Shown here in pieces: positions 8,621-58,869 of a stretch of DNA of 64,000 bases. The stretch comes from Escherichia coli (GTDB lineage: Bacteria; Pseudomonadota; Gammaproteobacteria; Enterobacterales; Enterobacteriaceae), in NCBI RefSeq assembly GCF_024223415.1, contig NZ_CP100500.1; one strand, written 5' to 3'. The first letter of the stretch is position 1; each line of letters starts with the position of its first letter. The position numbers were made by a program, and so were the translations under genes. Below the pieces are notes generated by a model, which was not told the DNA's origin, made no database searches, and saw only the letters and a program-made list of their open reading frames with translations.

Positions 8621-8630
8621 TCCAGGATTG

Positions 8631-10419: not shown

Positions 10420-10496
10420 TGGTCGGCACGAGAGGATTTGAACCTCCGACCCCCGACACCCCATGACGGTGCGCTACCAGGCTGCGCTACGTGCCG
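10420..10496 (-). tRNA. proL: tRNA-Pro (anticodon GGG)
   Basis: Reverse complement reads CGGCACGTAGCGCAGCCTGGTAGCGCACCGTCATGGGGTGTCGGGGGTCGGAGGTTCAAATCCTCTCGTGCCGACCA, which matches E. coli proL from memory. Confidence 0.9.
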
Positions 10497-32845: not shown

Positions 32846-33112
32846 GCTGGTCGATCATTGGAAGAGGAAGACGCGGAGTTTACGCTGCTTGTCAGAAAAT
32901 AAACAGACAGCGAAATCAAAAGCGCCACGAATAATCAAAATGCCATTTCACTGTTGCTGATTGGCTGCTGACGCTGCTGAAATGAAATTGCTGATAACGG
33001 ATTTTCCCATCAGCAATTAGGAAAAATGACAAAAAATTGTGCAGCACATCAAACTTTTGCTCATAACTTTACGGCTTTCCTTGCGTGCTGAAACAGAAGT
33101 ACTATGCTTTCT

Positions 33113-33198
33113 TGAAACGTTTCAGCGCGATCTTGTCTTTAACCCTAAGCCAGGTTGGCGCTTTTTTTCTCATAGAAGCTGAATCGTTTCAATTCAGC
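33113..33198. promoter_or_regulatory. fruB promoter region with two Cra (FruR) operator-like palindromes
   Basis: TGAAACGTTTCAGC at 33113..33126 and GCTGAATCGTTTCAATTCAGC at 33178..33198, just upstream of the fruB ATG at 33213. Confidence 0.65.
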
Positions 33199-33212
33199 AA
33201 GAGAGGAGAACT

Positions 33213-34343
33213 ATGTTCCAGTTATCCGTACAGGACATCCATCCGGGCGAAAAGGCCGGAGACAAAGAAGAGGCGATTCGCCAGGTCGCTGCGGCGCTGG
33301 TGCAGGCCGGTAATGTAGCAGAAGGCTACGTCAATGGCATGCTGGCGCGCGAACAGCAAACCTCAACGTTCCTCGGCAATGGTATTGCTATTCCACACGG
33401 CACTACCGACACCCGCGATCAGGTGCTGAAAACCGGCGTTCAGGTATTTCAGTTCCCGGAAGGCGTCACCTGGGGTGACGGTCAGGTAGCGTACGTAGCG
33501 ATCGGTATTGCTGCCAGCTCGGATGAGCATCTGGGCCTGCTACGCCAGCTGACCCACGTACTGAGCGATGATTCCGTTGCTGAACAACTGAAGTCAGCAA
33601 CAACAGCAGAAGAACTTCGCGCATTGCTGATGGGCGAAAAGCAGAGTGAGCAGCTGAAGCTCGACAACGAAATGCTGACGCTGGATATCGTCGCCAGCGA
33701 TCTGCTGACTCTTCAGGCGCTGAACGCTGCGCGTCTGAAAGAAGCGGGGGCAGTTGACGCCACTTTCGTCACCAAAGCCATCAATGAACAACCGCTGAAC
33801 CTCGGACAGGGCATCTGGCTGAGCGATAGCGCCGAAGGCAATTTGCGTAGCGCGATTGCTGTAAGCCGTGCGGCAAATGCTTTTGATGTGGACGGCGAAA
33901 CGGCAGCCATGCTGGTGAGTGTGGCGATGAATGACGATCAGCCCATTGCGGTTCTTAAGCGTCTCGCTGATTTGTTGCTCGACAATAAAGCTGACCGCTT
34001 GCTGAAAGCGGATGCGGCAACGTTGCTGGCGCTGCTGACCAGCGATGATGCGCCGACCGACGACGTGTTAAGCGCGGAGTTTGTGGTGCGCAATGAACAC
34101 GGCCTGCATGCTCGTCCAGGTACCATGCTGGTCAACACCATTAAACAATTTAACAGTGATATTACCGTGACAAACCTTGATGGCACCGGCAAACCGGCAA
34201 ACGGACGTAGTCTGATGAAAGTTGTGGCACTTGGCGTTAAGAAAGGTCATCGCCTACGCTTTACCGCCCAGGGTGCAGATGCTGAACAGGCGCTGAAAGC
34301 AATCGGCGACGCTATCGCTGCTGGTCTTGGGGAGGGCGCATAA
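33213..34343 (+). CDS. fruB: Fructose PTS multiphosphoryl transfer protein FruB (376 aa)
   Basis: Translated ORF recognised as E. coli FruB. Confidence 0.9.
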
Positions 34344-35281
34344 TGAGCAGACGTGTTGCTACTATCACCCTTAATCCGGCTTATGACCTTGTTGGTTTCT
34401 GCCCGGAAATTGAACGCGGCGAAGTGAACCTGGTGAAAACCACCGGTCTGCATGCGGCGGGTAAAGGCATCAACGTGGCCAAAGTATTAAAAGACCTGGG
34501 AATTGATGTCACCGTTGGCGGCTTCCTCGGTAAAGACAATCAGGATGGTTTTCAGCAACTGTTCAGCGAGCTGGGCATTGCCAACCGTTTCCAGGTTGTA
34601 CAGGGGCGCACCCGAATTAACGTTAAGCTGACGGAAAAAGACGGCGAAGTGACCGACTTCAACTTCTCGGGTTTTGAAGTCACTCCCGCCGACTGGGAAC
34701 GCTTTGTGACTGATTCTCTGAGCTGGCTCGGTCAGTTCGATATGGTCTGTGTCAGCGGAAGCTTACCGTCAGGCGTCAGCCCGGAAGCGTTCACCGACTG
34801 GATGACTCGCCTGCGTAGTCAGTGCCCTTGCATTATCTTTGATAGTAGCCGTGAAGCGTTAGTAGCAGGTTTGAAAGCGGCACCGTGGCTGGTGAAACCT
34901 AACCGCCGCGAGCTGGAAATCTGGGCAGGCCGTAAACTGCCTGAAATGAAAGATGTGATTGAAGCTGCGCATGCGCTGCGTGAACAAGGTATTGCGCATG
35001 TCGTTATTTCACTGGGTGCCGAAGGCGCGCTTTGGGTTAATGCCTCCGGCGAATGGATCGCCAAACCACCGTCAGTCGATGTCGTAAGCACCGTTGGCGC
35101 AGGGGATTCTATGGTTGGTGGCCTGATTTATGGCTTGCTAATGCGTGAATCCAGTGAACACACACTGCGTCTGGCGACTGCTGTTGCAGCCCTGGCGGTA
35201 AGTCAAAGCAATGTGGGTATTACCGATCGTCCGCAGTTGGCCGCAATGATGGCGCGCGTCGACTTACAACCTTTTAACTGA
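34343..35281 (+). CDS. fruK: 1-phosphofructokinase FruK (312 aa)
   Basis: Translated ORF recognised as E. coli FruK (PfkB family); ATGA overlap with fruB. Confidence 0.9.
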   Translation: MSRRVATITLNPAYDLVGFCPEIERGEVNLVKTTGLHAAGKGINVAKVLKDLGIDVTVGGFLGKDNQDGFQQLFSELGIANRFQVVQGRTRINVKLTEKDGEVTDFNFSGFEVTPADWERFVTDSLSWLGQFDMVCVSGSLPSGVSPEAFTDWMTRLRSQCPCIIFDSSREALVAGLKAAPWLVKPNRRELEIWAGRKLPEMKDVIEAAHALREQGIAHVVISLGAEGALWVNASGEWIAKPPSVDVVSTVGAGDSMVGGLIYGLLMRESSEHTLRLATAVAALAVSQSNVGITDRPQLAAMMARVDLQPFN

Positions 35282-35297
35282 CAGCAGGAGAGGCATA

Positions 35298-36989
35298 ATG
35301 AAAACGCTGCTGATTATTGACGCTAATCTCGGTCAGGCACGCGCCTATATGGCGAAGACCCTGCTGGGCGCGGCGGCGCGAAAAGCAAAACTGGAAATCA
35401 TCGACAATCCGAACGACGCAGAAATGGCGATTGTTCTCGGTGATTCCATCCCGAATGACAGCGCGCTGAACGGTAAAAATGTCTGGCTGGGCGATATTTC
35501 CCGGGCAGTTGCGCACCCTGAGCTGTTCCTGAGTGAAGCCAAAGGCCATGCGAAACCTTACACTGCGCCGGTCGCTGCGACAGCACCGGTTGCCGCCAGC
35601 GGTCCGAAACGCGTAGTTGCGGTGACTGCTTGCCCGACTGGCGTAGCACACACCTTTATGGCGGCTGAAGCCATTGAAACCGAAGCGAAAAAACGTGGCT
35701 GGTGGGTGAAAGTTGAAACCTGTGGTTCTGTTGGTGCGGGTAATGCAATCACCCCCGAAGAAGTAGCCGCAGCGGATCTGGTGATTGTGGCGGCAGATAT
35801 CGAAGTGGATCTGGCGAAATTTGCTGGTAAACCGATGTATCGTACCTCTACTGGTCTGGCGCTGAAGAAAACCGCGCAGGAACTGGATAAAGCGGTTGCT
35901 GAAGCAACGCCGTATGAACCGGCGGGCAAAGCTCAAACGGCGACCTCTGAAGGTAAGAAAGAGAGTGCAGGCGCATACCGTCACTTGCTGACGGGTGTCT
36001 CTTACATGCTGCCGATGGTCGTTGCAGGTGGTCTGTGTATCGCGCTTTCTTTTGCTTTTGGTATCGAAGCGTTTAAAGAGCCGGGTACGTTGGCAGCGGC
36101 GCTGATGCAGATTGGTGGTGGTTCAGCCTTTGCGCTGATGGTGCCGGTACTGGCAGGTTATATTGCCTTCTCCATTGCCGATCGTCCGGGTCTCACGCCG
36201 GGTCTGATTGGCGGTATGCTGGCGGTCAGCACCGGTTCTGGCTTCATTGGCGGTATTATTGCGGGCTTCCTGGCTGGTTACATTGCGAAGTTAATCAGTA
36301 CGCAACTGAAACTGCCACAGAGTATGGAGGCGCTGAAACCGATCCTGATCATTCCGCTAATTTCCAGTCTGGTGGTCGGTCTGGCGATGATCTACCTGAT
36401 CGGTAAACCGGTTGCTGGCATTCTCGAAGGGTTGACTCACTGGCTGCAGACCATGGGGACTGCGAATGCGGTTCTGCTGGGGGCGATCCTCGGTGGCATG
36501 ATGTGTACTGACATGGGCGGTCCGGTAAATAAAGCAGCGTACGCATTCGGTGTGGGTCTGCTGAGTACTCAAACCTATGGCCCGATGGCGGCGATTATGG
36601 CGGCAGGTATGGTGCCACCGCTGGCAATGGGTCTGGCAACAATGGTGGCGCGTCGCAAATTTGACAAAGCGCAGCAGGAAGGTGGCAAAGCCGCTCTGGT
36701 TCTTGGTCTGTGCTTTATTTCGGAAGGTGCAATTCCGTTTGCTGCTCGTGATCCGATGCGTGTGCTGCCGTGCTGTATCGTGGGTGGGGCGCTGACTGGC
36801 GCAATCTCAATGGCGATTGGTGCGAAACTGATGGCACCGCACGGTGGTCTGTTTGTTCTGCTGATCCCTGGCGCTATTACGCCGGTACTGGGTTACCTGG
36901 TAGCAATTATTGCCGGTACGCTGGTGGCGGGTTTGGCCTATGCCTTCCTGAAACGTCCGGAAGTGGACGCAGTAGCGAAAGCCGCGTAA
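35298..36989 (+). CDS. fruA: Fructose PTS EIIB'BC component FruA (563 aa)
   Basis: Translated ORF recognised as E. coli FruA. Confidence 0.9.
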   Translation: MKTLLIIDANLGQARAYMAKTLLGAAARKAKLEIIDNPNDAEMAIVLGDSIPNDSALNGKNVWLGDISRAVAHPELFLSEAKGHAKPYTAPVAATAPVAASGPKRVVAVTACPTGVAHTFMAAEAIETEAKKRGWWVKVETCGSVGAGNAITPEEVAAADLVIVAADIEVDLAKFAGKPMYRTSTGLALKKTAQELDKAVAEATPYEPAGKAQTATSEGKKESAGAYRHLLTGVSYMLPMVVAGGLCIALSFAFGIEAFKEPGTLAAALMQIGGGSAFALMVPVLAGYIAFSIADRPGLTPGLIGGMLAVSTGSGFIGGIIAGFLAGYIAKLISTQLKLPQSMEALKPILIIPLISSLVVGLAMIYLIGKPVAGILEGLTHWLQTMGTANAVLLGAILGGMMCTDMGGPVNKAAYAFGVGLLSTQTYGPMAAIMAAGMVPPLAMGLATMVARRKFDKAQQEGGKAALVLGLCFISEGAIPFAARDPMRVLPCCIVGGALTGAISMAIGAKLMAPHGGLFVLLIPGAITPVLGYLVAIIAGTLVAGLAYAFLKRPEVDAVAKAA

Positions 36990-36999
36990 TAAAAGGTGT

Positions 37000-37032
37000 G
37001 TTACAGGGCAGAAATTTACTGCCCTGTATCAT
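37000..37032 (+). terminator. Hairpin downstream of fruA (probable terminator)
   Basis: Stem cagggcag/ctgccctg directly after the fruA stop; weak T tract. Confidence 0.45.
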
Positions 37033-37412
37033 TGGATGAGCGCAAAGAGAATGACCGGTTTGTGAATGTAATTTTATGAATTTAAATGGTTTTATCTTTC
37101 AGTAGAAACCTGAAACGTTCATCAAACACTAAGGTTATTTCCTCAAGGGCAGATTCTTTTCTGCCCTTTTTTAGTGTTCATGTTCTGTGCATCCCGTCAC
37201 AAATTCCTCGCTTTTGTAATTCAGGCATTTAATCGCATTTTGTGAGCCTGCTCAAATCTGCCCGCTTTGCCTCTCTGGCGGCAATTTACTTTACGTAAAA
37301 CATGCATACTATGAGCACATGTTTAAATATGAACACATGTTTAAACCGTCTTTGCAGTATCTATATCCTTGTGGATTGACAGGGTTGGTAATTTTTTACC
37401 AGAGGACGTGCT

Positions 37413-38354
37413 ATGCGCGAAAAGGATTATGTCGTAATTATAGGTTCGGCGAATATTGATGTCGCCGGATATTCACATGAATCATTAAATTATGCGGATT
37501 CAAATCCAGGTAAAATAAAATTTACACCTGGTGGAGTAGGGCGAAATATTGCACAAAACCTGGCGTTGCTGGGTAACAAAGCCTGGCTACTGAGCGCAGT
37601 AGGTAGTGATTTTTATGGTCAATCGCTGCTAACGCAAACCAATCAATCTGGCGTTTATGTCGATAAATGCCTGATTGTGCTGGGAGAAAATACGTCGAGT
37701 TATTTATCATTACTCGATAATACCGGTGAAATGCTGGTTGCTATAAATGACATGAATATTAGCAACGCTATTACAGCTGAATATCTCGCACAACACCGTG
37801 AATTTATTCAGAGGGCAAAGGTCATTGTCGCGGACTGTAATATCAGTGAAGAGGCACTGGCATGGATTCTGGATAATGCCGCCAACGTACCCGTATTTGT
37901 CGATCCGGTTTCAGCGTGGAAATGTGTCAAAGTGCACGACCGTCTAAATCAGATCCACACTCTGAAGCCAAACCGCCTTGAAGCGGAAACCCTGAGTGGG
38001 ATAGCGCTGTCAGGGCGTGAAGATGTGGCAAAGGTTGCCGCCTGGTTCCATCAACATGGCCTGAACCGACTGGTATTGAGCATGGGCGGCGATGGCGTTT
38101 ATTACAGTGAAATCAGCGGTGAAAGTGGCTGGTCTGCCTCGATCAAAACCAATGTTATTAATGTTACCGGAGCGGGCGATGCCATGATGGCGGGACTTGC
38201 TTCGTGTTGGGTAGACGGAATGCCGTTTGCCGAATCTGTTCGTTTCGCACAGGGATGTTCGTCAATGGCGCTCTCCTGTGAATACACCAATAACCCCGAT
38301 TTATCGATTGCCAACGTTATATCGTTAGTGGAGAACGCAGAATGTCTGAATTAA
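37413..38354 (+). CDS. psuK: Pseudouridine kinase PsuK/YeiC (313 aa)
   Basis: Translated ORF recognised as E. coli YeiC; PfkB-family kinase motifs. Confidence 0.9.
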   Translation: MREKDYVVIIGSANIDVAGYSHESLNYADSNPGKIKFTPGGVGRNIAQNLALLGNKAWLLSAVGSDFYGQSLLTQTNQSGVYVDKCLIVLGENTSSYLSLLDNTGEMLVAINDMNISNAITAEYLAQHREFIQRAKVIVADCNISEEALAWILDNAANVPVFVDPVSAWKCVKVHDRLNQIHTLKPNRLEAETLSGIALSGREDVAKVAAWFHQHGLNRLVLSMGGDGVYYSEISGESGWSASIKTNVINVTGAGDAMMAGLASCWVDGMPFAESVRFAQGCSSMALSCEYTNNPDLSIANVISLVENAECLN

Positions 38355-39280
38355 AAATTTCCCCTGAATTATTACAAATTTCCCCGGAAGTGCAGGACGC
38401 TTTAAAAAACAAAAAACCGGTTGTGGCGCTGGAATCGACCATTATTTCTCACGGGATGCCGTTCCCACAAAATGCCCAGACCGCAATTGAAGTTGAAGAA
38501 ACTATTCGTAAACAGGGCGCAGTACCTGCCACTATCGCCATTATTGGTGGCGTGATGAAAGTGGGTTTAAGCAAAGATGAAATTGAATTACTGGGTCGTG
38601 AAGGGCATAACGTGACCAAAGTTAGTCGTCGCGATTTACCTTTTGTTGTTGCCGCCGGAAAAAATGGCGCAACCACTGTGGCTTCAACGATGATTATTGC
38701 GGCGCTTGCCGGAATTAAAGTATTTGCCACCGGGGGAATTGGTGGTGTTCATCGCGGGGCGGAACATACCTTCGATATTTCTGCCGATTTGCAAGAACTG
38801 GCAAATACTAATGTCACCGTTGTTTGTGCCGGGGCGAAATCTATTCTCGATTTAGGATTAACCACTGAGTATTTAGAAACCTTCGGTGTGCCGTTAATTG
38901 GCTATCAGACTAAAGCGCTGCCTGCGTTTTTCTGCCGCACCAGCCCATTTGAAGTCAGTATTCGCCTTGATAGTGCCACGGAAATCGCTCGTGCAATGGC
39001 AGTGAAATGGCAAACCGGTTTGAACGGTGGTCTGGTAGTGGCGAATCCGATCCCGGAACAGTTTGCGATGCCGGAGGAATCTATCAATGCAGCCATAGAT
39101 CAAGCCGTCGCCGAAGCCGAAGAGCAGGGCGTTATTGGTAAAGAAAGTACACCGTTCCTGCTGGCGCGTGTTGCTGAACTGACCGGCGGTGACAGCCTGA
39201 AATCCAACATCCAACTGGTGTTCAACAACGCCATTCTGGCGAGCGAAATTGCCAAAGAATACCAGCGTCTCGCGGGTTAA
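38342..39280 (+). CDS. psuG: Pseudouridine-5'-phosphate glycosidase PsuG/YeiN (312 aa)
   Basis: Translated ORF recognised as E. coli YeiN. Confidence 0.9.
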   Translation: MSELKISPELLQISPEVQDALKNKKPVVALESTIISHGMPFPQNAQTAIEVEETIRKQGAVPATIAIIGGVMKVGLSKDEIELLGREGHNVTKVSRRDLPFVVAAGKNGATTVASTMIIAALAGIKVFATGGIGGVHRGAEHTFDISADLQELANTNVTVVCAGAKSILDLGLTTEYLETFGVPLIGYQTKALPAFFCRTSPFEVSIRLDSATEIARAMAVKWQTGLNGGLVVANPIPEQFAMPEESINAAIDQAVAEAEEQGVIGKESTPFLLARVAELTGGDSLKSNIQLVFNNAILASEIAKEYQRLAG

Positions 39281-39373
39281 TTTCTGACGGGCAGAAAGCC
39301 GTCGCCCGTACTGATCATACATACCGAAACCTGGCGCTGACGCCGGGTTTACTGGCATGAAGGGAAAATCATT

Positions 39374-40624
39374 ATGGATATAATGAGAAGTGTTGTGGGG
39401 ATGGTGGTGTTACTGGCAATAGCATTTCTGTTGTCGGTAAATAAAAAGAGCATCAGTTTGCGCACGGTTGGAGCCGCACTGCTGCTGCAAATCGCTATTG
39501 GTGGCATCATGCTCTATTTTCCGCCGGGAAAATGGGCAGTAGAACAGGCGGCATTAGGCGTTCATAAAGTGATGTCTTACAGTGATGCCGGTAGCGCCTT
39601 CATTTTTGGTTCGCTGGTCGGGCCGAAAATGGATGTCTTGTTCGACGGTGCAGGCTTTATCTTCGCCTTTCGCGTACTTCCGGCGATTATCTTCGTCACT
39701 GCGCTTATCAGCCTGCTGTACTACATTGGCGTAATGGGACTGCTAATTCGTATTCTTGGCAGCATTTTCCAGAAAGCTCTTAACATCAGCAAAATCGAGT
39801 CTTTTGTTGCGGTTACCACTATTTTCCTCGGGCAGAACGAGATCCCGGCGATCGTTAAACCGTTTATCGATCGCATGAATCGCAACGAGCTGTTTACCGC
39901 AATTTGTAGCGGGATGGCATCCATTGCCGGTTCGATGATGATTGGTTACGCCGGAATGGGCGTGCCGATTGACTACCTGTTAGCGGCATCGCTGATGGCT
40001 ATCCCAGGCGGTATTTTGTTTGCACGTATTCTTAGCCCAGCAACCGAGCCTTCGCAGGTCACGTTTGAAAATCTGTCGTTCAGCGAAATGCCGCCAAAAA
40101 GCTTTATCGAAGCAGCGGCGAGCGGTGCGATGACCGGGCTGAAAATCGCCGCCGGTGTGGCGACGGTGGTCATGGCGTTTGTCGCAATTATTGCGCTGAT
40201 TAATGGCATTATTGGCGGAATTGGCGGCTGGTTTGGTTTTGCCAATGCCTCTCTGGAAAGTATTTTTGGCTATGTGCTGGCACCGCTGGCGTGGATCATG
40301 GGTGTGGACTGGAGTGATGCCAACCTTGCGGGTAGCCTGATTGGGCAGAAACTGGCGATTAACGAATTCGTCGCTTACCTGAGTTTCTCCCCATACCTGC
40401 AAACGGGCGGCACGCTGGAAGTGAAAACCATTGCGATTATCTCCTTTGCGCTTTGTGGTTTTGCTAACTTTGGTTCTATCGGTGTTGTCGTTGGGGCATT
40501 TTCGGCTATTTCGCCAAAACGTGCTCCGGAAATCGCCCAGCTTGGTTTACGGGCGCTGGCAGCAGCAACGCTTTCCAACCTGATGAGCGCGACCATTGCC
40601 GGGTTCTTTATTGGTTTAGCTTGA
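39374..40624 (+). CDS. psuT: NupC-family nucleoside transporter PsuT/YeiM (416 aa)
   Basis: Translated ORF recognised as E. coli YeiM; close paralog of nupX further right. Confidence 0.9.
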   Translation: MDIMRSVVGMVVLLAIAFLLSVNKKSISLRTVGAALLLQIAIGGIMLYFPPGKWAVEQAALGVHKVMSYSDAGSAFIFGSLVGPKMDVLFDGAGFIFAFRVLPAIIFVTALISLLYYIGVMGLLIRILGSIFQKALNISKIESFVAVTTIFLGQNEIPAIVKPFIDRMNRNELFTAICSGMASIAGSMMIGYAGMGVPIDYLLAASLMAIPGGILFARILSPATEPSQVTFENLSFSEMPPKSFIEAAASGAMTGLKIAAGVATVVMAFVAIIALINGIIGGIGGWFGFANASLESIFGYVLAPLAWIMGVDWSDANLAGSLIGQKLAINEFVAYLSFSPYLQTGGTLEVKTIAIISFALCGFANFGSIGVVVGAFSAISPKRAPEIAQLGLRALAAATLSNLMSATIAGFFIGLA

Positions 40625-40691
40625 GTTTCATTGCCGGATGTACTCGCTTATTAAGCGTTGCATCCGGCAATCGCGCTATTGCAAATAATTT

Positions 40692-41351
40692 TTACTGCAT
40701 CATCCCGGAGAATTTATTCTCCGGGTCCATCTCCAGCGCCAGTCCTGACAACTGCTTTCTGTTTTTAATGAGATATCCTTTCTTGCTTTTAATTAATAAA
40801 CCGTCGTGAATGAATTGCGCGAGAACATATAAAAGATGTCGATAAGAAACGCCTAAATACTCTGCCGCTTGCGTATGCTTTTCGTGATAAAGATCACCTT
40901 CTTGTGAGAGTAATATAAATGCTGCCAGGCGATTCACTAACGGAAATGATTGATTCTGAGTTAAAGAAACAATATTACGATAATTTTTATGACTTAAGGT
41001 GACGCAAAGTTTTCGTAAAAATAGGGTGTCGTTTAATAACAGCGGACGGTAATGTTTCATAGGGAGCGCAAGGCACCAACACTCTTCAATCGCCTGTACT
41101 GCACGTGGTTCATGGTCTTTATCGATTAACTCAATCTCGCCAATAAAACAGGGGGCGGCAAAGAAATCGATCAGCGACACGCAACCATTAGCTAGCGTGG
41201 CGTAAAGCCTGGCGCGGCCTCGCGTCAGGTAAAACAGCCAGGACGGCTGTTGCCCTTCCTGCACAATGTAGTCACGCGCTAAAAAATGAAACAGCCGCGT
41301 ATCGGCTGAAACATCCGTTAAAAAGCAATCCTTAAACGCGGATTCACTCAT
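40692..41351 (-). CDS. yeiL: Crp/Fnr-family regulator YeiL (about 219 aa)
   Basis: Translated ORF recognised as E. coli YeiL; C-terminal HTH. Confidence 0.85.
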
Positions 41352-41519
41352 CAATTGCTGCTTAAGATCATTATTGTGGATTTCTTTCACGATGTTTATC
41401 CGCTATGAGATTTCTCATATTTAGCATACGTACGCTGTTGTTAAGATTCAATCATCGGCCCGGTCGAATTTTCTTTGCTGTAGAAAAAATAACGCAACTG
41501 GAAACAGAGGAAATAAACA

Positions 41520-42461
41520 ATGGAAAAGAGAAAAATTATTCTGGATTGTGATCCGGGTCATGATGATGCTATTGCAATGATGATGGCAGCGAAACATCCG
41601 GCAATAGATTTATTAGGCATCACTATTGTAGCGGGTAATCAGACGCTTGATAAAACATTAATTAATGGCCTGAATGTTTGCCAGAAACTGGAGATTAATG
41701 TTCCGGTTTATGCGGGGATGCCGCAACCCATTATGCGTCAACAAATCGTTGCCGATAATATTCACGGTGAAACCGGACTGGATGGCCCGGTATTCGAGCC
41801 GCTGACCCGCCAGGCAGAAAGTACCCACGCGGTGAAATACATCATTGATACCCTGATGGCAAGCGATGGCGATATCACTCTGGTGCCGGTTGGTCCGTTG
41901 TCAAATATCGCGGTGGCAATGCGTATGCAACCCGCAATCCTGCCCAAAATCCGTGAAATTGTGCTAATGGGCGGCGCTTACGGTACAGGCAACTTCACGC
42001 CATCTGCCGAGTTCAACATCTTTGCTGACCCGGAAGCCGCACGCGTGGTGTTCACCTCCGGCGTTCCATTAGTGATGATGGGCCTCGATCTTACCAACCA
42101 GACCGTTTGCACCCCGGACGTAATTGCTCGGATGGAAAGGGCAGGCGGCCCTGCCGGAGAGCTATTCAGCGACATCATGAACTTCACTCTCAAAACGCAG
42201 TTCGAAAACTACGGCCTGGCTGGCGGCCCGGTGCACGACGCCACCTGCATCGGTTATCTGATTAACCCTGATGGCATTAAAACCCAGGAGATGTACGTCG
42301 AAGTGGACGTCAACAGTGGCCCTTGTTATGGGCGTACCGTCTGCGACGAGCTGGGCGTTCTTGGCAAGCCCGCTAATACCAAAGTCGGCATCACTATTGA
42401 TACCGACTGGTTCTGGGGCTTAGTCGAAGAGTGCGTGCGCGGCTACATCAAAACCCATTAA
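41520..42461 (+). CDS. rihB: Pyrimidine-specific ribonucleoside hydrolase RihB/YeiK (313 aa)
   Basis: N-terminal DCDPGHDDA nucleoside-hydrolase motif; recognised as E. coli RihB. Confidence 0.9.
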
Positions 42462-42560
42462 GTGTTGATAACAAGCCGGGCCGGTATCGCAAGATGCAGG
42501 CCTGGCTATTTCTGAGGGGCAGAAAGCCGTCGCCCAATATGACATGAAGAGATAATAACT

Positions 42561-43808
42561 ATGGATGTCATGAGAAGTGTTCTGGGAATGGTGGTATTGC
42601 TGACGATTGCGTTTTTACTGTCAGTAAACAAGAAGAAGATCAGCCTGCGTACCGTTGGCGCGGCGTTAGTGTTACAGGTCGTGATCGGCGGGATTATGCT
42701 TTGGTTACCGCCAGGGCGTTGGGTCGCTGAAAAAGTCGCTTTTGGCGTGCATAAAGTGATGGCGTACAGCGATGCAGGTAGCGCATTTATCTTCGGTTCG
42801 CTGGTCGGGCCGAAAATGGACACGCTGTTTGATGGCGCAGGATTTATCTTTGGTTTCAGGGTGTTACCGGCAATTATCTTCGTCACCGCGCTGGTGAGTA
42901 TTCTCTACTACATCGGTGTGATGGGGATCTTAATTCGCATTCTCGGCGGTATCTTCCAGAAAGCGTTAAATATCAGCAAGATCGAGTCATTCGTCGCGGT
43001 CACTACCATTTTCCTCGGGCAAAACGAAATTCCGGCAATCGTCAAACCCTTTATCGATCGGCTGAATCGCAATGAGTTATTTACAGCGATTTGTAGTGGC
43101 ATGGCCTCAATTGCCGGTTCGACAATGATTGGTTACGCCGCGCTGGGCGTGCCTGTGGAATATCTGCTGGCGGCATCATTAATGGCGATCCCCGGCGGGA
43201 TCTTGTTTGCCCGCCTGTTAAGCCCGGCTACGGAATCTTCGCAGGTTTCCTTTAATAACCTCTCTTTCACCGAAACACCGCCAAAAAGCATTATTGAAGC
43301 GGCAGCGACAGGGGCGATGACCGGGCTGAAAATCGCTGCGGGTGTGGCAACAGTGGTGATGGCATTTGTTGCCATCATTGCGTTAATTAACGGTATTATC
43401 GGCGGCGTTGGCGGCTGGTTTGGTTTTGAACATGCCTCGCTGGAGTCCATTTTAGGTTATCTGCTGGCCCCACTGGCGTGGGTAATGGGTGTTGACTGGA
43501 CTGATGCGAATCTTGCCGGGAGTTTGATTGGACAGAAACTGGCAATAAATGAATTTGTCGCTTATCTCAATTTCTCACCCTATCTGCAAACGGCTGGCAC
43601 TCTGGATGCTAAAACCGTGGCGATTATTTCCTTCGCGTTGTGCGGTTTCGCTAACTTTGGTTCTATCGGGGTGGTGGGGGCGTTTTCTGCGGTTGCGCCA
43701 CACCGTGCGCCGGAAATCGCCCAACTTGGTTTACGCGCGCTGGCGGCGGCGACACTTTCTAATCTGATGAGTGCCACCATTGCCGGGTTCTTTATTGGTT
43801 TAGCGTAG
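42561..43808 (+). CDS. nupX: NupC-family nucleoside permease NupX/YeiJ (415 aa)
   Basis: Translated ORF recognised as E. coli NupX. Confidence 0.9.
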   Translation: MDVMRSVLGMVVLLTIAFLLSVNKKKISLRTVGAALVLQVVIGGIMLWLPPGRWVAEKVAFGVHKVMAYSDAGSAFIFGSLVGPKMDTLFDGAGFIFGFRVLPAIIFVTALVSILYYIGVMGILIRILGGIFQKALNISKIESFVAVTTIFLGQNEIPAIVKPFIDRLNRNELFTAICSGMASIAGSTMIGYAALGVPVEYLLAASLMAIPGGILFARLLSPATESSQVSFNNLSFTETPPKSIIEAAATGAMTGLKIAAGVATVVMAFVAIIALINGIIGGVGGWFGFEHASLESILGYLLAPLAWVMGVDWTDANLAGSLIGQKLAINEFVAYLNFSPYLQTAGTLDAKTVAIISFALCGFANFGSIGVVGAFSAVAPHRAPEIAQLGLRALAAATLSNLMSATIAGFFIGLA

Positions 43809-43863
43809 TGTGCGATTTATGAGCCGGATTAGATGCGGTCAAGCGTCGAATCCGGCAACATTG

Positions 43864-44952
43864 TTACACCATTGGCACTAATGACAGCGCGTTATCGGCA
43901 GACAGGGTAGGGTTGTTTAAGCTGCCGCTGGCGCGTGAAATTGCCGCGCAGGCCATCGCAAAACGGGCGCTGTCACGGAAATTGTTTCCCTCCAGAAAGC
44001 TATATACCAGACCCGCCATAAAACCATCGTCAGCACCAAAACTGTCTACCGTCGTATGCGCTGGCACAGTCAGCAAAAATTGTTCACCATCCTTTTCGCT
44101 GCAATAAACTGACTCATCGGGCAAATAAACAAACAGTTGCTGAACACCTTGCTGATGCAATGCATTCACTGCGGCATTACGGTCAGCATCGCTGGTGATC
44201 GCCTGTCCCCATAAAATTTCCAGCTCCGGTAAAGTGGGTTTCAGGGTGTGAACATGCGCCAGCCAGTGTTTGATTTTGCCCGCTTTGAATTCTGAAACGG
44301 TATCGACAAACACCGGGATCTCACCAGCGAGGGTAAAGACCCATTCCAGCGCCTCGGCTGTCAGGTTGCAATCAGCCAGTACCACGCCCGCATGACGAAG
44401 TAAATCGCGCGACCCGTTCAATAATTGCGGCGATAACTGTTCCAGCAGATGGGTATCGTTAATCGCCAGCACGGTTTGATCGTCTCGATTGGCAATTGCC
44501 AGATACGTCGATGTGCTTTGACCATGTAAACGAACGCAGCCGGAGACATTCACGCCGGCGCGGCGCGTTTCTTCCAGGAGCATTTCGCCATAAAAGTCAT
44601 CGCCAATCACTGAAAGCAAATGGACGTCACGGCCTAACAGCGCCAGATTGTGGGCGATGTTGCGTCCCACGCCGCCCGCCGAGCAATGAATCGTACCGGG
44701 ATGAGAAGCCGCTTGCGGGTAACGGATATCCGCCATCCCGCGAATATCCATATTGATTGTCCCCACCACTACGCAGTATTCCTGCTCGGTGAGAATGTAA
44801 CCTTTGCCTTTAATCCGCCCTTTGCGCATTAAATCCATAATATGCGCCGCAACGCGCGAACGACTGATTTGCAGCATGTCCGCAATTTCGTTCTGCTGAA
44901 TCAGCGGGTTACGCCGTAAAATTGCAAGGATCTCCTTTTCCCGGTTATTCAT
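43864..44952 (-). CDS. yeiI: Putative sugar kinase with N-terminal HTH, YeiI (362 aa)
   Basis: Translated ORF recognised as E. coli YeiI; PfkB-like domain paralogous to psuK. Confidence 0.85.
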   Translation of the reverse strand: MNNREKEILAILRRNPLIQQNEIADMLQISRSRVAAHIMDLMRKGRIKGKGYILTEQEYCVVVGTINMDIRGMADIRYPQAASHPGTIHCSAGGVGRNIAHNLALLGRDVHLLSVIGDDFYGEMLLEETRRAGVNVSGCVRLHGQSTSTYLAIANRDDQTVLAINDTHLLEQLSPQLLNGSRDLLRHAGVVLADCNLTAEALEWVFTLAGEIPVFVDTVSEFKAGKIKHWLAHVHTLKPTLPELEILWGQAITSDADRNAAVNALHQQGVQQLFVYLPDESVYCSEKDGEQFLLTVPAHTTVDSFGADDGFMAGLVYSFLEGNNFRDSARFAMACAAISRASGSLNNPTLSADNALSLVPMV

Positions 44953-44954
44953 CT

Positions 44955-45812
44955 TCAGGCTACCGCTTTTTCAGTTTGTTGCGCTTTCAGCCAGGCGATC
45001 TCTTCTGCCCAGATATCCGGGTTGATGGTTTCGAGGATCAGCGGAATGCCGTCGAAACGGTCGTCCTGCATGATCCAGCGGAACGCATCATGACCGATAT
45101 TGCCTTCACCGAGGCTATGATGGCGGTCAACGCGGCTGCCAAAGGTGCTTTTCGCATCGTTAAGGTGCATCCCGCGCAGATACTTAAAGCCGACAATACG
45201 GGCAAAATCCGCGAACGTTTTCTCGCATTCGGCTGGAGTACGCAAATCATACCCGGCAGCGAAAGCATGGCAGGTATCAATGCAGACGCCTACACGGGAT
45301 TTATCTTCCACGCCGTCGATAATCGCCGCGAGATGTTCGAATTTAAACCCTAAGTTACTGCCCTGACCGGCGGTGTTTTCAATCACCGCGGTCACACCTT
45401 GAGTTTTATCCAGCGCAATGTTGATGGATTCGGCAATACGCGCAAGGCAATCCTCTTCTGAAATCTGCATCAGATGGCTGCCAGGGTGGAAATTGAGCAA
45501 AGAAAGCCCCAGTTGTTCGCAACGCTGCATTTCATCTATAAAGGCATCGCGCGATTTTTCCAGAGCTTCAGCGACCGGATGTCCGAGGTTAATCAGATAG
45601 CTGTCGTGGGGAAGAATTTGCGCCGATGTGTAGTGATATTTTTCACAGGCGGCTTTGAATTCATCGATGGTTTGCGTCGTGAGCGGTGCGGCACGCCACT
45701 GACGTTGGTTTTTGGTGAACAAGGCAAACGCGGTTGCGTCGATTTCGGCGGCGCGAATTGCGGCATTTGCCAGACCGCCAGCAGCACTAACGTGCGCTCC
45801 AATGTATTTCAT
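44955..45812 (-). CDS. nfo: Endonuclease IV (285 aa)
   Basis: Translated ORF recognised as E. coli Nfo. Confidence 0.9.
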
Positions 45813-45885
45813 GCGAGGACTCCTGTTAAACCCGCTGGAGGAAAACGGTAATGATAGCGGGTTAACAGGAGCAAGATGTAGTGGT

Positions 45886-46935
45886 TTATGCGATGACGCT
45901 TTGAATCACATAGTTAATCGCACCACCACCAACAATCAGCCAGGCAAACAGTACCAGTGCCATCAGCAGAGGTTTCGCCCCGGCTTTTTTCAGCGCGCTG
46001 ACGTGAGTGGTCAGACCCAGCGCCGCCATCGCCATTGCCAGCAGGAAGGTATCCAGCGTTACCAGCATGTTCACCACGCTCTGCGGTAACAGGTGGAACG
46101 AGTTAAAGATGGCAACTACGATGAACAAGATGGCAAACCACGGAATAGTGATTTTGCTTTTCTCGCCGCTGTTCGCCCCAGACAGCTGTTTAACACGCGC
46201 CGCCAGCAGGATGAGGAACGGAGCCAGCATCATCACGCGCAGCATTTTGGAAATAACTGCTGCGTTTTCCGCATCCGGGCTGATGGCATGACCTGCCGCC
46301 ACCACCTGCGCCACTTCGTGCACAGTAGAACCAATGTAGATACCGAAAGTTTCCGGACTAAACCATTGAGACATCAGCGGATATATCGCCGGGTAGAGGA
46401 AAATCGCGACGGTCCCGAAGATAACAACGGTTGCAACAGCCACGGTTACTTTACTGGCTTCCGCTTTCACTACCGGCTCAGTCGCCAGTACCGCGGCAGC
46501 ACCACAGATACTGCTACCGGCACCGATCAACCAGCTGGTGTGCTTATCCAGACCAAACACTTTCTGCCCCAGGAAGCAAGCCAGCAGGAAGGTACTGGAC
46601 AGCGTCAACACGTCAATGATGATCCCACTGATACCGACATCGGCAATTTGCGAGAACGTCAGACGGAAGCCATAAAGAATGATACCCAGACGTAATAAAT
46701 ATTGCTTGGCAAACAGCACACCACCGTCACAGCTTTTCCAGATGTGCGGATAGATGGTGTTGCCTAAAACCATCCCCAACAAGATTGCGAGGGTGAGGGC
46801 ACTAAACCCGGCACCCGCAACCGCGGGAATGGAACCACCCCACAGGGCGACCCCGGTGATAACTGCACTCAGGGCTAACCCCGGAATAAAATGCCACAGT
46901 GTACGATGTTGTTTCTGTAAGGTGATATTCGTCAT
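45886..46935 (-). CDS. yeiH: UPF0324 inner-membrane protein YeiH (349 aa)
   Basis: Translated ORF recognised as E. coli YeiH; polytopic membrane protein. Confidence 0.85.
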
Positions 46936-47033
46936 AACCCTCTCCTTTAACCGGGCATAAGGTTACGACTAACTGGTTTAAAAATAAAATTGATTATATA
47001 TTTATAATTAATCTTTATAAGTGGTAAGCGACT

Positions 47034-47915
47034 ATGCACATCACCCTCCGGCAGTTGGAAGTTTTTGCAGAAGTATTGAAAAGTGGATCAACCACCCAGG
47101 CGTCGGTGATGCTGGCGTTGTCGCAATCAGCAGTGAGCGCAGCCTTGACCGACCTGGAAGGGCAGCTTGGCGTGCAACTGTTTGATCGCGTGGGGAAAAG
47201 ACTGGTTGTTAATGAACACGGGCGGCTGCTCTATCCGCGTGCGTTGGCACTGCTTGAACAGGCGGTTGAAATCGAACAACTGTTTCGCGAAGACAACGGC
47301 GCGATTCGTATCTATGCCAGTAGTACCATCGGTAACTACATTCTGCCTGCAGTTATCGCCCGTTATCGCCATGATTATCCGCAGTTGCCGATTGAACTTA
47401 GCGTTGGGAACAGCCAGGACGTGATGCAAGCGGTGCTGGATTTCCGCGTTGATATTGGCTTTATTGAAGGACCGTGCCACAGCACTGAAATCATTTCTGA
47501 ACCGTGGCTGGAAGACGAGCTGGTGGTTTTCGCCGCGCCGACTTCGCCGTTGGCCCGTGGTCCGGTCACCTTAGAACAGCTGGCCGCTGCGCCGTGGATC
47601 CTGCGTGAACGCGGTTCCGGCACGCGGGAGATTGTCGATTATCTGTTGCTGTCACATTTACCGAAGTTTGAGATGGCGATGGAATTAGGTAACTCCGAGG
47701 CAATCAAACATGCGGTGCGTCATGGGTTGGGAATTAGTTGCCTGTCGCGACGGGTGATTGAAGATCAATTGCAGGCAGGCACATTAAGTGAAGTTGCGGT
47801 CCCTCTGCCGCGCCTGATGCGTACGTTGTGGCGTATACATCATCGGCAAAAACACCTTTCCAACGCGCTACGGCGCTTTCTGGACTATTGCGATCCCGCG
47901 AATGTACCGCGTTAA
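47034..47915 (+). CDS. yeiE: LysR-family transcriptional regulator YeiE (293 aa)
   Basis: Translated ORF recognised as E. coli YeiE; divergent from yeiH. Confidence 0.9.
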
Positions 47916-48119
47916 GTTGCTGTACAAGAACATGCTGGTGCTGTGTCGATTTCGTGACGCAGCGCCCTCAGCATGCATTCGCCAGAAAAGAGATTGGCTG
48001 CTTTACTTATAATCCCTGGGCGATCATGAAGGTGTCTTATAACCGTGTATTTCTGCCGGAAGGATTGCCAATCGTCTGCTACAATCGCGCCTCATTTTTT
48101 AGATGGATAGCATTTTTGT

Positions 48120-49589
48120 ATGGTTTCCGAAACTAAAACCACAGAAGCGCCGGGCTTACGCCGTGAATTAAAGGCGCGTCACCTGACGATGATTGCCATT
48201 GGTGGTTCCATCGGTACAGGTCTTTTTGTTGCCTCTGGCGCAACGATTTCTCAGGCAGGTCCGGGCGGGGCATTGCTCTCGTATATGCTGATTGGCCTGA
48301 TGGTTTACTTCCTGATGACCAGTCTCGGTGAACTGGCTGCATATATGCCGGTTTCCGGTTCGTTTGCCACTTACGGTCAGAACTATGTTGAAGAAGGCTT
48401 TGGCTTCGCGCTGGGCTGGAACTACTGGTACAACTGGGCGGTGACTATTGCCGTTGACCTGGTTGCAGCTCAGCTGGTCATGAGCTGGTGGTTCCCGGAT
48501 ACACCGGGCTGGATCTGGAGTGCGTTGTTCCTCGGCGTTATCTTCCTGCTGAACTACATCTCTGTTCGCGGCTTTGGTGAAGCGGAATACTGGTTCTCAC
48601 TGATCAAAGTCACGACAGTTATTGTCTTTATCATCGTTGGCGTGCTGATGATTATCGGTATCTTCAAAGGCGCGCAGCCTGCGGGCTGGAGCAACTGGAC
48701 AATCGGCGAAGCGCCGTTTGCTGGTGGTTTTGCGGCGATGATCGGCGTAGCTATGATTGTCGGCTTCTCTTTCCAGGGAACCGAGCTGATCGGTATTGCT
48801 GCAGGCGAGTCCGAAGATCCGGGGAAAAACATTCCACGCGCGGTACGTCAGGTGTTCTGGCGAATCCTGTTGTTCTATGTGTTCGCGATCCTGATTATCA
48901 GCCTGATTATTCCGTACACCGATCCGAGCCTGCTGCGTAACGATGTTAAAGACATCAGCGTTAGTCCGTTCACCCTGGTGTTCCAGCACGCGGGTCTGCT
49001 CTCTGCGGCGGCGGTGATGAACGCAGTTATTCTGACGGCGGTGCTGTCAGCCGGTAACTCCGGTATGTATGCGTCTACTCGTATGCTGTACACCCTGGCG
49101 TGTGACGGTAAAGCGCCGCGCATTTTCGCTAAACTGTCGCGTGGTGGCGTGCCGCGTAATGCGCTGTATGCGACGACGGTGATTGCCGGTCTGTGCTTCC
49201 TGACCTCCATGTTTGGCAACCAGACGGTATACCTGTGGCTGCTGAACACCTCCGGGATGACCGGTTTTATCGCCTGGCTGGGGATTGCCATTAGCCACTA
49301 CCGCTTCCGTCGCGGTTACGTATTGCAGGGACACGACATTAACGATCTGCCGTACCGTTCAGGTTTCTTCCCACTGGGTCCGATCTTCGCATTCATTCTG
49401 TGTCTGATTATCACTTTGGGCCAGAACTACGAAGCATTCCTGAAAGATACCATTGACTGGGGCGGCGTAGCGGCAACGTATATTGGTATCCCGCTGTTCC
49501 TGATTATTTGGTTCGGCTACAAGCTGATTAAAGGAACCCACTTCGTACGCTACAGCGAAATGAAGTTCCCGCAGAACGATAAGAAATAA
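48120..49589 (+). CDS. lysP: Lysine-specific permease LysP (489 aa)
   Basis: Translated ORF recognised as E. coli LysP; APC-family transporter. Confidence 0.9.
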   Translation: MVSETKTTEAPGLRRELKARHLTMIAIGGSIGTGLFVASGATISQAGPGGALLSYMLIGLMVYFLMTSLGELAAYMPVSGSFATYGQNYVEEGFGFALGWNYWYNWAVTIAVDLVAAQLVMSWWFPDTPGWIWSALFLGVIFLLNYISVRGFGEAEYWFSLIKVTTVIVFIIVGVLMIIGIFKGAQPAGWSNWTIGEAPFAGGFAAMIGVAMIVGFSFQGTELIGIAAGESEDPGKNIPRAVRQVFWRILLFYVFAILIISLIIPYTDPSLLRNDVKDISVSPFTLVFQHAGLLSAAAVMNAVILTAVLSAGNSGMYASTRMLYTLACDGKAPRIFAKLSRGGVPRNALYATTVIAGLCFLTSMFGNQTVYLWLLNTSGMTGFIAWLGIAISHYRFRRGYVLQGHDINDLPYRSGFFPLGPIFAFILCLIITLGQNYEAFLKDTIDWGGVAATYIGIPLFLIIWFGYKLIKGTHFVRYSEMKFPQNDKK

Positions 49590-49606
49590 GTTTCTCCCTT
49601 CCTTGC

Positions 49607-49637
49607 TAAGCCCTCTCAACCGAGAGGGCTTTTTCAA
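49607..49637 (+). terminator. Intrinsic terminator downstream of lysP
   Basis: Hairpin agccctctcaaccgagagggct followed by TTTTT. Confidence 0.75.
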
Positions 49638-49686
49638 TTCCATTTCCCTGACAAATCATGCGGATATAAAATTTAACATTTGGATT

Positions 49687-49714
49687 GATAATTGTTATCG
49701 TTTGCATTATCGTT
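49687..49714. promoter_or_regulatory. Fur-box-like sequence in cirA promoter
   Basis: GATAATTGTTATCGTTTGCATTATCGTT resembles overlapping Fur boxes (GATAATGATAATCATTATC consensus) upstream of cirA. Confidence 0.55.
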
Positions 49715-49880
49715 ACGCCGCAATCAAAAAAGGCTGACAAATCAGAGGCTGGTCCGGCTTGCTGGGATGATCACCTGCATACAAATAAGTCCACCGCGAT
49801 GCTGCCGTACGCAAGGGGACGTGAAGAAGATGTGAGCGATAACCCATTTTATTTTCGTAGTTACCTCATGGAGATATGGA

Positions 49881-51860
49881 ATGTTTAGGTTGAACCCTTT
49901 CGTACGGGTCGGGCTGTGTTTGTCCGCTATTTCTTGTGCATGGCCTGTGTTAGCGGTCGATGATGATGGCGAAACGATGGTTGTCACTGCATCTTCCGTT
50001 GAACAAAACCTTAAAGATGCACCCGCCAGTATCAGCGTCATTACCCAGGAAGACCTGCAGCGAAAACCGGTACAGAATCTGAAGGATGTCCTCAAAGAAG
50101 TGCCTGGCGTACAACTGACGAACGAAGGGGATAACCGTAAGGGCGTTAGTATTCGTGGTCTGGACAGCAGCTACACCCTGATTCTTGTCGACGGTAAACG
50201 CGTTAACTCCCGCAATGCCGTCTTCCGCCACAATGATTTCGATCTGAACTGGATCCCGGTCGATTCCATCGAACGTATTGAAGTGGTCCGTGGCCCGATG
50301 TCGTCGCTGTACGGTTCCGATGCGCTCGGCGGTGTAGTGAATATCATCACCAAAAAAATCGGTCAGAAATGGTCGGGTACCGTTACCGTCGATACCACCA
50401 TTCAGGAACATCGCGATCGCGGTGATACCTATAACGGTCAGTTCTTTACCAGTGGACCATTAATTGATGGTGTGCTGGGAATGAAAGCTTACGGCAGCCT
50501 GGCAAAACGTGAAAAGGATGACCCGCAAAACTCAACGACCACCGATACCGGAGAAACGCCGCGTATTGAAGGATTCTCCAGCCGCGACGGCAATGTCGAA
50601 TTTGCCTGGACACCGAATCAAAATCACGATTTTACTGCCGGATATGGTTTCGACCGTCAGGATCGTGATTCCGACTCGCTGGACAAAAACCGCCTGGAAC
50701 GCCAGAACTACTCCGTCAGCCATAATGGGCGTTGGGATTACGGCACCAGCGAACTGAAATACTACGGTGAGAAAGTCGAGAACAAAAACCCTGGCAACAG
50801 CAGCCCGATAACTTCCGAAAGCAATACGGTCGACGGCAAATACACGTTGCCGCTGACGGCGATTAATCAGTTTCTCACGGTTGGCGGTGAATGGCGTCAC
50901 GACAAACTTAGCGATGCGGTGAACCTGACCGGGGGAACCAGCTCCAAAACGTCTGCCAGCCAGTACGCGCTGTTTGTGGAAGATGAATAGCGAATCTTCG
51001 AGCCGCTGGCGCTGACGACCGGCGTACGTATGGACGATCATGAAACCTACGGTGAACACTGGAGTCCGCGTGCCTACCTGGTTTATAACGCCACCGACAC
51101 CGTAACGGTGAAAGGGGGCTGGGCGACGGCATTTAAAGCGCCTTCTCTGTTGCAACTTAGCCCTGACTGGACGAGCAATTCCTGCCGTGGCGCATGTAAG
51201 ATTGTGGGTAGCCCGGATCTGAAACCAGAAACCAGCGAAAGTTGGGAGCTGGGGCTTTACTACATGGGTGAAGAAGGCTGGCTGGAAGGGGTTGAATCCA
51301 GCGTTACCGTTTTCCGTAACGATGTGAAAGATCGTATCAGCATCAGCCGTACGTCTGACGTCAATGCTGCACCGGGCTACCAAAACTTTGTTGGTTTTAC
51401 AGCGAACGGTGTGCCGGTATTTAGCTACTACAACGTTAACAAAGCACGTATTCAGGGCGTGGAAACCGAACTGAAAATTCCGTTCAACGATGAATGGAAA
51501 CTGTCACTCAACTACACCTACAACGATGGTCGTGATGTCAGCAACGGCGAAAACAAACCGCTATCCGATCTGCCGTTCCATACCGCTAACGGTACGCTGG
51601 ACTGGAAACCGCTGGCACTGGAAGACTGGTCATTCTATGTTTCTGGTCACTATACCGGGCAGAAACGAGCCGACAGCGCGACGGCTAAAACACCGGGCGG
51701 TTATACCATCTGGAATACCGGCGCGGCCTGGCAGGTGACTAAAGACGTCAAACTGCGCGCAGGCGTGCTGAACCTTGGCGACAAGGATCTCAGTCGTGAC
51801 GACTACAGCTATAACGAAGACGGACGTCGTTACTTTATGGCAGTGGATTATCGCTTCTGA
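49881..51860 (+). pseudogene. cirA: TonB-dependent catecholate/colicin I receptor CirA interrupted by in-frame TAG at 50988..50990
   Basis: ORFs 49881..50990 and 51030..51860 are in the same frame and together read as CirA (...[12 protein letters not shown][TAG][21 protein letters not shown]...). I believe the wild type has TGG (Trp) at this codon. Confidence 0.8.
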
Positions 51861-51891
51861 TAAGAAGATGCCCGGCGAACCGGGCGGACTT

Positions 51892-57348: not shown

Positions 57349-58869
57349 ATGGTCAGCTCAACGACTCCGTCCTCCGGGGAATACTTGTTGGAAATGAGCG
57401 GTATCAACAAGTCCTTTCCTGGTGTTAAGGCACTTGATAACGTTAATTTAAAAGTCCGGCCACATTCTATCCATGCATTAATGGGGGAAAACGGTGCAGG
57501 AAAATCGACATTATTAAAATGCCTGTTTGGTATTTATCAAAAAGACTCCGGCACCATTTTATTCCAGGGTAAAGAGATCGATTTCCATTCTGCAAAAGAA
57601 GCCCTGGAAAATGGTATTTCGATGGTACACCAGGAGTTAAACCTGGTATTACAACGTTCGGTGATGGATAACATGTGGCTGGGGCGATACCCCACCAAAG
57701 GCATGTTTGTCGATCAGGACAAAATGTACCGCGAAACCAAAGCGATTTTTGATGAACTGGATATTGATATCGATCCGCGTGCGCGCGTCGGCACATTATC
57801 TGTTTCGCAAATGCAGATGATCGAAATCGCCAAAGCGTTTTCCTATAACGCGAAAATTGTGATTATGGATGAACCGACTTCTTCGTTAACCGAAAAAGAG
57901 GTCAATCATCTGTTCACTATTATTCGTAAATTAAAAGAGCGCGGCTGCGGTATTGTTTATATCTCGCATAAAATGGAAGAAATCTTCCAGTTATGTGATG
58001 AAGTTACCGTATTGCGCGACGGTCAGTGGATCGCCACTGAACCGCTGGCAGGACTGACGATGGACAAGATCATCGCCATGATGGTTGGGCGTTCTCTTAA
58101 CCAGCGTTTCCCTGACAAAGAAAACAAGCCGGGCGAAGTCATCCTCGAGGTGCGTAACCTGACGTCACTGCGCCAGCCGTCGATTCGCGATGTCTCGTTT
58201 GATCTGCATAAAGGGGAGATCCTCGGTATTGCCGGTCTGGTGGGGGCGAAACGTACCGATATTGTTGAGACGTTATTTGGTATTCGCGAGAAATCGGCTG
58301 GCACCATAACGTTGCACGGCAAACAGATCAATAACCATAATGCCAACGAAGCCATAAACCACGGATTTGCACTGGTAACTGAGGAGCGCCGCTCAACGGG
58401 AATTTATGCCTATCTGGATATCGGTTTTAACTCGTTAATTTCCAATATTCGCAACTACAAAAATAAAGTTGGTTTACTGGATAACTCGCGGATGAAAAGC
58501 GATACCCAGTGGGTGATTGATTCGATGCGGGTGAAAACGCCGGGTCATCGGACGCAAATTGGTTCGCTCTCAGGTGGTAATCAGCAAAAGGTGATTATTG
58601 GTCGCTGGCTGTTAACGCAACCAGAAATATTAATGCTCGATGAACCGACGCGCGGTATTGATGTCGGGGCGAAGTTTGAAATTTATCAGTTAATTGCCGA
58701 ACTGGCGAAGAAAGGCAAGGGGATTATTATTATCTCCTCTGAAATGCCTGAGTTGTTAGGGATAACAGACCGTATTCTGGTCATGAGCAATGGTCTCGTT
58801 TCCGGAATTGTCGACACAAAAACAACAACGCAAAACGAAATTCTGCGTCTTGCGTCTTTGCACCTTTAA
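57349..58869 (+). CDS. mglA: Galactose ABC transporter ATP-binding protein MglA (506 aa)
   Basis: Translated ORF recognised as E. coli MglA; two ABC domains. Confidence 0.9.

Follow-up and report, generated by a model that had tools for sequence, protein, structure and literature searches.

Does the Escherichia coli strain studied here retain a working colicin I receptor, or has a single stop codon cost it the gene, and is such a loss peculiar to this strain? The window (the whole stretch analysed, 64 kb of contig NZ_CP100500.1) contains a 369-codon open reading frame (49881..50990, plus strand) that is ended by an amber TAG, followed in the same frame by a second ORF from an ATG at 51030 to 51860 (276 aa). 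An initial annotation made from the sequence had taken the two for one cirA gene, split by a TAG where the wild type should have TGG. We put the probability at roughly 0.88 that the assembly consensus records a real G:C>A:T nonsense transition, that it inactivated an otherwise common 659-codon cirA allele, and that it is one of many independent losses of this gene.

The cirA locus and its wild-type codon

Translation of 49881-51863 in a single frame yields 659 codons with a sole internal stop, at codon 370, and an ordinary double TAA terminus, which bears out the reading of two ORFs in one frame. The stop occupies 50988-50990 (context GAA GAT GAA TAG CGA ATC TTC from 50979). The features of the locus are as follows.

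49673..49713, + strand: two promoter-like sites (hexamers) overlapped by a Fur-box-like site, by sequence match
49881..51860, + strand: cirA (catecholate siderophore / colicin I receptor), 659-codon allele, a pseudogene via one internal stop; by translation, NCBIfam, PDB match and annotation
49881..50987, + strand: retained ORF of 369 aa, with signal peptide (residues 1-25), TonB box, plug and approximately the first 10 barrel strands
50645, + strand: C>T at the third position of codon 255, synonymous and private to the window (C in every comparator)
50988..50990, + strand: amber codon replacing Trp370 (TGG), mutated base 50989, G>A; by comparison with intact alleles
50991..51860, + strand: untranslated remnant, with strands ~11-22, loops 6-11 (including R436/R490) and the C-terminal ...AVDYRF

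The N-terminal 369 residues score 804.8 bits against the NCBIfam CirA equivalog NF007478.2 (cut-off 745 bits) over profile positions 1-369 of 663, and the downstream 276-aa ORF scores 587.4 bits over positions 384-663. The intact allele of strain SCU-316, our proxy for a repaired window gene, reaches 1445.3 bits. Its product matches the colicin I receptor structure 2HDF_A with 1438 bits and is near-identical to it over residues 26-659; 2HDI and 9NN6 are also matched. The gene order lysP-cirA-yeiG is kept in the window, and an annotated cirA stands at the corresponding place in 5,425 of 5,426 complete E. coli genomes. Equivalog score, position between lysP and yeiG and near-identity to a solved structure thus identify the gene as cirA, as had been claimed. 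In precomputed Pfam results, Plug (PF07715) is the only match on the 369-aa piece and TonB_dep_Rec_b-barrel lies on the downstream piece. The window encodes no uninterrupted frame for a plug and a complete 22-strand barrel; it has a single in-frame stop, with co-framed flanks, at a codon that is sense in close relatives. Because of this stop at codon 370, we file the gene as a cirA pseudogene and not as a functional receptor.

The wild-type codon is TGG, as the initial annotation had supposed. It is found at codon 370 in the closest intact allele (WP_000489254.1, carried by SCU-316 and KV7), in MDR_56 and in all ten of the loci L009-L018, and every comparator without TAG has G at 50989. Across 2401 bp that include the whole upstream region, the window and the SCU-316 allele differ only at 50989 and 50645, and downstream of the stop there are zero further differences. 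A chance stop in a poor ORF is ruled out, as one transition alone separates the window's codon from TGG and the gene is highly conserved.

The putative promoter region is also unchanged, with 49600-49880 identical in the window and in SCU-316, whose cirA is intact. The Fur-box-like site at 49687-49705 matches GATAATGATAATCATTATC at 14 of 19 positions, and matches at least this good occurred in 3 of 257 stretches of equal size. Since the region is the same as in intact alleles, cirA is presumably still transcribed under iron limitation.

The window and MDR_56 show approximately 7 differences over the ~18 kb at 32000-50000, compared with 16-54 differences per 2 kb in the interval 24-32 kb and 8-19 per 2 kb at 54-62 kb. 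This uneven divergence is the mosaic pattern that recombination would be expected to produce. The window's best matches among complete genomes reach just 99.1-99.7% identity over 24-25 kb, and its yeiB allele is a common one. The first part of the window holds a phage-satellite-like island (1-10201) that is integrated beside tRNA-Pro(GGG) and yejM and resembles a capsid-forming PICI. Its genes are all intact (integrase, AlpA, Icd-like/primase, RepA helicase, SSB, PerC, ProQ/FinO, major capsid and head decoration). Coverage of positions 1-25000 reaches 80% or more in only 77 of 5,426 complete genomes. The window also encodes two paralogous transporters of the NupC family, psuT and nupX (39353-40620 and 42540-43804), with ~78.6% DNA identity; both are on one strand, at a distance of 3 kb, and the pair could be a substrate for recombination.

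Recurrent loss of cirA

The W370* product is not rare. An exact-sequence look-up placed the 369-aa product on 633 public contigs; it was found in 868 blocks of a public assembly index, and all the returned loci have TAG at codon 370. A 47-bp probe for TAG followed by CGG matched exactly in 8 of 5,426 complete E. coli genomes: 64.1 (from turkey), MS1679, GPEC1258, GPEC673 and E7 (poultry), EA7 (pig), CU37RT-2 (human) and WP7-S18-ESBL-09 (wastewater), so that five are from turkey or chicken. RefSeq annotates an internal stop in the catecholate siderophore receptor CirA in all five of the TAG+CGG genome records that were examined. An earlier reading of the change as a private mutation came from a 61-bp probe around TAG that had no exact match; this probe also spans a CGA/CGG polymorphism at codon 371, such that TAG+CGG scores like TGG+CGA, and the reading was overturned by the protein look-up and the 47-bp probes.

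The base change, the codon and the 369-aa product of these RefSeq pseudogenes are identical to those of the window. In contrast, codon 371 is CGG in these eight genomes but CGA in the window, and their cirA genes are 25-43 differences away from that of the window. A 47-bp probe for the window's own TAG+CGA haplotype matched none of the 5,426 complete genomes. Ten TAG-370 carriers represent at least 6 full-gene haplotypes that are 10-56 differences apart, and the 150 bp on each side of the stop show at least 5 local haplotypes, the nearest polymorphisms being only 4 bp and 11 bp from it. Recurrent mutation is a far more parsimonious source of this distribution than repeated, very short conversion tracts. 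The window's cirA is separated from an intact allele by 2 differences, but from each of the other TAG carriers by 25 or more; W370* therefore has a separate origin here, and the window's TAG is an independent event.

The cirA genes of 64.1, MS1679 and GPEC1258 are identical and that of locus L005 is one base away, and a poultry-associated clone is probably responsible for much of the high W370* count. A literature search for W370 in cirA returned no relevant paper. The allele type is public and annotated already, and the window's copy is an ordinary loss-of-function allele. The initial annotation was right that cirA is interrupted, but the allele is commonplace (633 contigs, 8 complete genomes); its novelty is local only, an independent origin on a haplotype unseen with TAG among complete genomes. 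In another TAG-370 carrier (L006, ERZ28585222), codon 490, beyond the stop, encodes Cys in place of Arg (R490C). R490 is reported to matter most for MccV binding and to vary among isolates (PMC12511343); the substitution may have drifted in after inactivation or have been there as a polymorphism before it.

Other lesions are frequent in this gene. NCTC10444, which belongs to the window's allele family, has R371* (CGA>TGA) at the codon directly after 370, and MDR_56 has an 8-bp insertion (GTACCGTT) after the equivalent of window position 50376. Two draft genomes have different 1-bp deletions, at 50009 (L010) and at 50170 (L016). A 7-bp deletion in 14EC020 removes one copy of a tandem 7-mer (GAAACCA x2, window 51221-51234), both copies of which are intact in the window. 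Judging by identical match length (2394 bp) and bit score, the same deletion is present in 13 more of the best 30 complete genomes (H17-H30). In Salmonella Reading the corresponding repeat has expanded to three copies (PMC10830755), and this 7-mer looks like a slippage hotspot. Altogether, the window's own family of cirA alleles has at least 6 different lesions. NCTC10444, MDR_56 and 14EC020 share the allele background and the pseudogene outcome with the window but not the mutational event, and thus the losses are independent.

A stop can be reached in cirA by 211 single-base routes over 161 codons, and 56 of these are transitions. Ten hypothetical products of transition nonsense mutations were looked up, and all ten are on record:

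W164*: 195 contigs
W243*: at least 1000 contigs (includes Shigella flexneri)
W285*: 50 contigs
Q330*: 44 contigs
W338*: 74 contigs
Q361*: 49 contigs
W370*: 633 contigs
R371*: 38 contigs
W394*: 29 contigs
W414*: 55 contigs

W370* is thus a frequent, not a singular, member of a saturated nonsense spectrum. In control look-ups, none of five hypothetical nonsense products of lysP was on record, compared with five of five for mglA (22-93 contigs each). The control test separates constrained from dispensable genes; by this measure cirA behaves as dispensable and is not shown to be exceptional. The mglA result implies that public assemblies are numerous enough to hold any given nonsense allele of a dispensable gene. 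For the two control genes themselves (lysP, 48120-49589; mglA, 57349-58869), the counts suggest that lysP is under strong constraint and that mglA has often been lost among public assemblies of E. coli and Shigella.

Most likely, many independent cirA losses are tolerated in E. coli populations and the window has one more. As to their cause, the strongest alternative to selection by bacteriocins is neutral decay, in which inactivation is fixed by drift where CirA is dispensable, without selection by colicins, microcins, phage or cefiderocol. As the nonsense products of mglA are all on record, the presence of cirA nonsense alleles alone is no proof of positive selection, and six of the ten cirA products, at 29-74 contigs, resemble those of mglA in number. 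In the uptake of catecholate iron, moreover, Fiu and FepA make CirA redundant (PMC10830755). Drift accounts less readily for the three nonsense products with 195, 633 and at least 1000 contigs, for the variety of lesions on the window's allele family, or for the finding that, of the eight complete genomes with W370*, five come from poultry, a niche in which colicin Ib and ColV plasmids are frequent. Further, cirA truncation rose from 5% to 74% of isolates in an outbreak clade of Salmonella Reading in turkeys, with loss of colicin Ib sensitivity (PMC10830755). The Reading alleles (a frameshift, 7-mer slippage and an in-frame deletion) are indels in another species, whereas the window has a nonsense transition. 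Both nonetheless represent independent, recurrent inactivation of cirA, and in Reading colicin Ib insensitivity and smaller cefiderocol zones were measured (PMC10830755). We infer that bacteriocin pressure probably favours cirA losses and is a likelier cause than neutral loss, which we regard as a serious alternative of distinctly lower probability.

Error, mutational hotspot and read-through

A sequencing or assembly error, with A at 50989 a consensus mistake in a strain that truly has TGG, is improbable. The absence of the exact TAG+CGA haplotype from the complete genomes is what might be expected of such an error. Against it, the change is a substitution and not a homopolymer indel of the kind typical of long-read errors, and the identical change is present in hundreds of independent assemblies, 8 finished genomes among them, which argues that W370* is a biologically common state. 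We also scanned the assembly for damaged genes, using annotated genes mapped from MDR_56 (33 genes, 26-64 kb) and GF4 (27 genes and pdeN, 1-26 kb). Apart from cirA, the 61 genes checked across the window are intact, and none of them has an internal stop or a length that is not a multiple of three; a noisy assembly is therefore unlikely.

It is less probable still that codon 370 is a special mutational hotspot, or that the fragment of plug and half barrel has a selected function of its own. Under the former, G>A should be far commoner here than at the other 16 Trp codons, and the window would be one more independent hit; under the latter, a piece consisting of the plug and ten strands might titrate TonB or bacteriocins in the periplasm. 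In favour are the identical G>A on at least 5 local haplotypes and the rank of W370*, second in contig number among the ten nonsense products looked up. However, every one of those ten products exists, W338* (as TAG and as TGA, on 4 divergent haplotypes) and Q361* (on 6) likewise have several haplotypes, and frameshifts at many other cirA positions give an equal outcome. No Dcm motif is present at codon 370, and no nearby direct or inverted repeat was found that could template TAG. The sole match of the template search was an 11-mer reverse complement 6 kb away, at 44946, which we consider a chance match.

Read-through, in which a suppressor tRNA encoded elsewhere or near-cognate decoding would let some full-length CirA be made from a leaky gene, seems equally remote. 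Downstream of the stop, 290 codons remain open and match the intact allele exactly, but a recent mutation would account for this absence of decay equally well. The stop is followed by a C, a comparatively weak termination context in E. coli. The only tRNA gene in the 64-kb window is tRNA-Pro(GGG) (10420-10496, minus strand), and none there has the anticodon CUA; known suppressor loci lie outside the window, and amber suppressors are rare outside laboratory strains. A draft genome (L028, GCA_902828935.1) combines Q361* with W370* on the cirA haplotype of the poultry clone, and the accumulation of a second nonsense codon fits a dead gene better than a maintained one.

The truncated product and its expected phenotype

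With a real nonsense mutation as the preferred reading, the consequences for the protein can be predicted from published structures. In the MccV-Cir cryo-EM structure, Cir has an N-terminal plug and a barrel of 22 strands, with 11 loops; loop 2 comprises residues 210-231, and R116, R436 and R490 form a pocket at the base of loops 7/8 that binds both colicin Ia and MccV (PMC12511343). R116, C435-R436 and R490 match the positions in the translated gene exactly, and so the published numbers follow precursor numbering; the contact residues R436 and R490 are encoded downstream of codon 370. Strand positions were estimated by laying alternating strand-like segments between the landmarks of loop 2 and R436/R490, and by this estimate W370 would be near the periplasmic end of strand 10. 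A single-sequence AlphaFold2 model of intact CirA made for strand counting was discarded (pLDDT 29.6).

The product ends after Glu369, where the initial annotation had put the truncation (at about residue 369), and it keeps the Plug domain and profile positions 1-369, a plug and partial barrel as was then proposed; NF007478.2 positions 370-663 are absent. Termination at this point would leave the signal peptide, TonB box, plug and strands 1 to ~10. The predicted losses are strands ~11-22, loops 6-11 with the colicin Ia/microcin V contacts R436/R490, and the C-terminal aromatic end. Assembly of outer-membrane barrels by BAM requires all strands and the C-terminal aromatic signal. The fragment would thus be unable to close a barrel and would be degraded in the periplasm, leaving a cell without CirA; from this general biogenesis of outer-membrane proteins, CirA is expected to be absent from the outer membrane. 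The downstream ORF from the ATG at 51030 has no signal peptide, and it should be silent, as inspection of the sequence ahead of that ATG revealed no obvious ribosome-binding site. A polar effect is not expected because cirA is monocistronic and yeiG converges on it.

We predict that the strain is insensitive to colicins Ia/Ib as well as to microcins that use Cir for entry, that it has lost uptake of dihydroxybenzoylserine-type catecholates via CirA, and that it has one fewer entry route for cefiderocol, with an effect on MIC only in permissive backgrounds. The predictions for colicins, MccV and cefiderocol draw on published cirA truncations and on the loss of R436/R490. The same consequences of CirA loss (colicin Ia/Ib and microcin resistance, reduced cefiderocol uptake) had been proposed in the initial annotation, and they agree with those truncations (PMC9241927, PMC10830755, PMC12511343); further cirA truncation phenotypes are published in PMC8579844. 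For cefiderocol the proposed mechanism is right, whereas any effect on MIC depends on strain background (PMC9241927).

A premature stop in cirA was found in 22 of 26 cefiderocol-resistant E. coli, and complementation with wild-type cirA cut the cefiderocol MIC 8-16-fold (PMC9241927). Deletion of cirA raised the MIC from 1 to 64 ug/mL (64-fold) in an NDM-5 strain, but in ATCC 25922 the MIC was 0.125 before and after (PMC9241927). As the MIC rose only in the NDM-5 strain, no resistance phenotype can be read from the window. NDM-5 E. coli of ST167/ST405 with high-level cefiderocol resistance have, like the window, lost CirA through a premature stop. Their truncations are at 109 or 621 aa, compared with 369 aa in the window, and act together with NDM-5 and a YRIN/YRIK insertion in PBP3 (PMC9241927). 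The loss would have clinical relevance for the window's strain only if a metallo-beta-lactamase or a PBP3 insertion were also present. Recurrent loss of cirA is not new in kind. The gene has been lost repeatedly in E. coli, by many lesions and in many backgrounds, and this is relevant to CirA as a gateway for drugs or bacteriocins.
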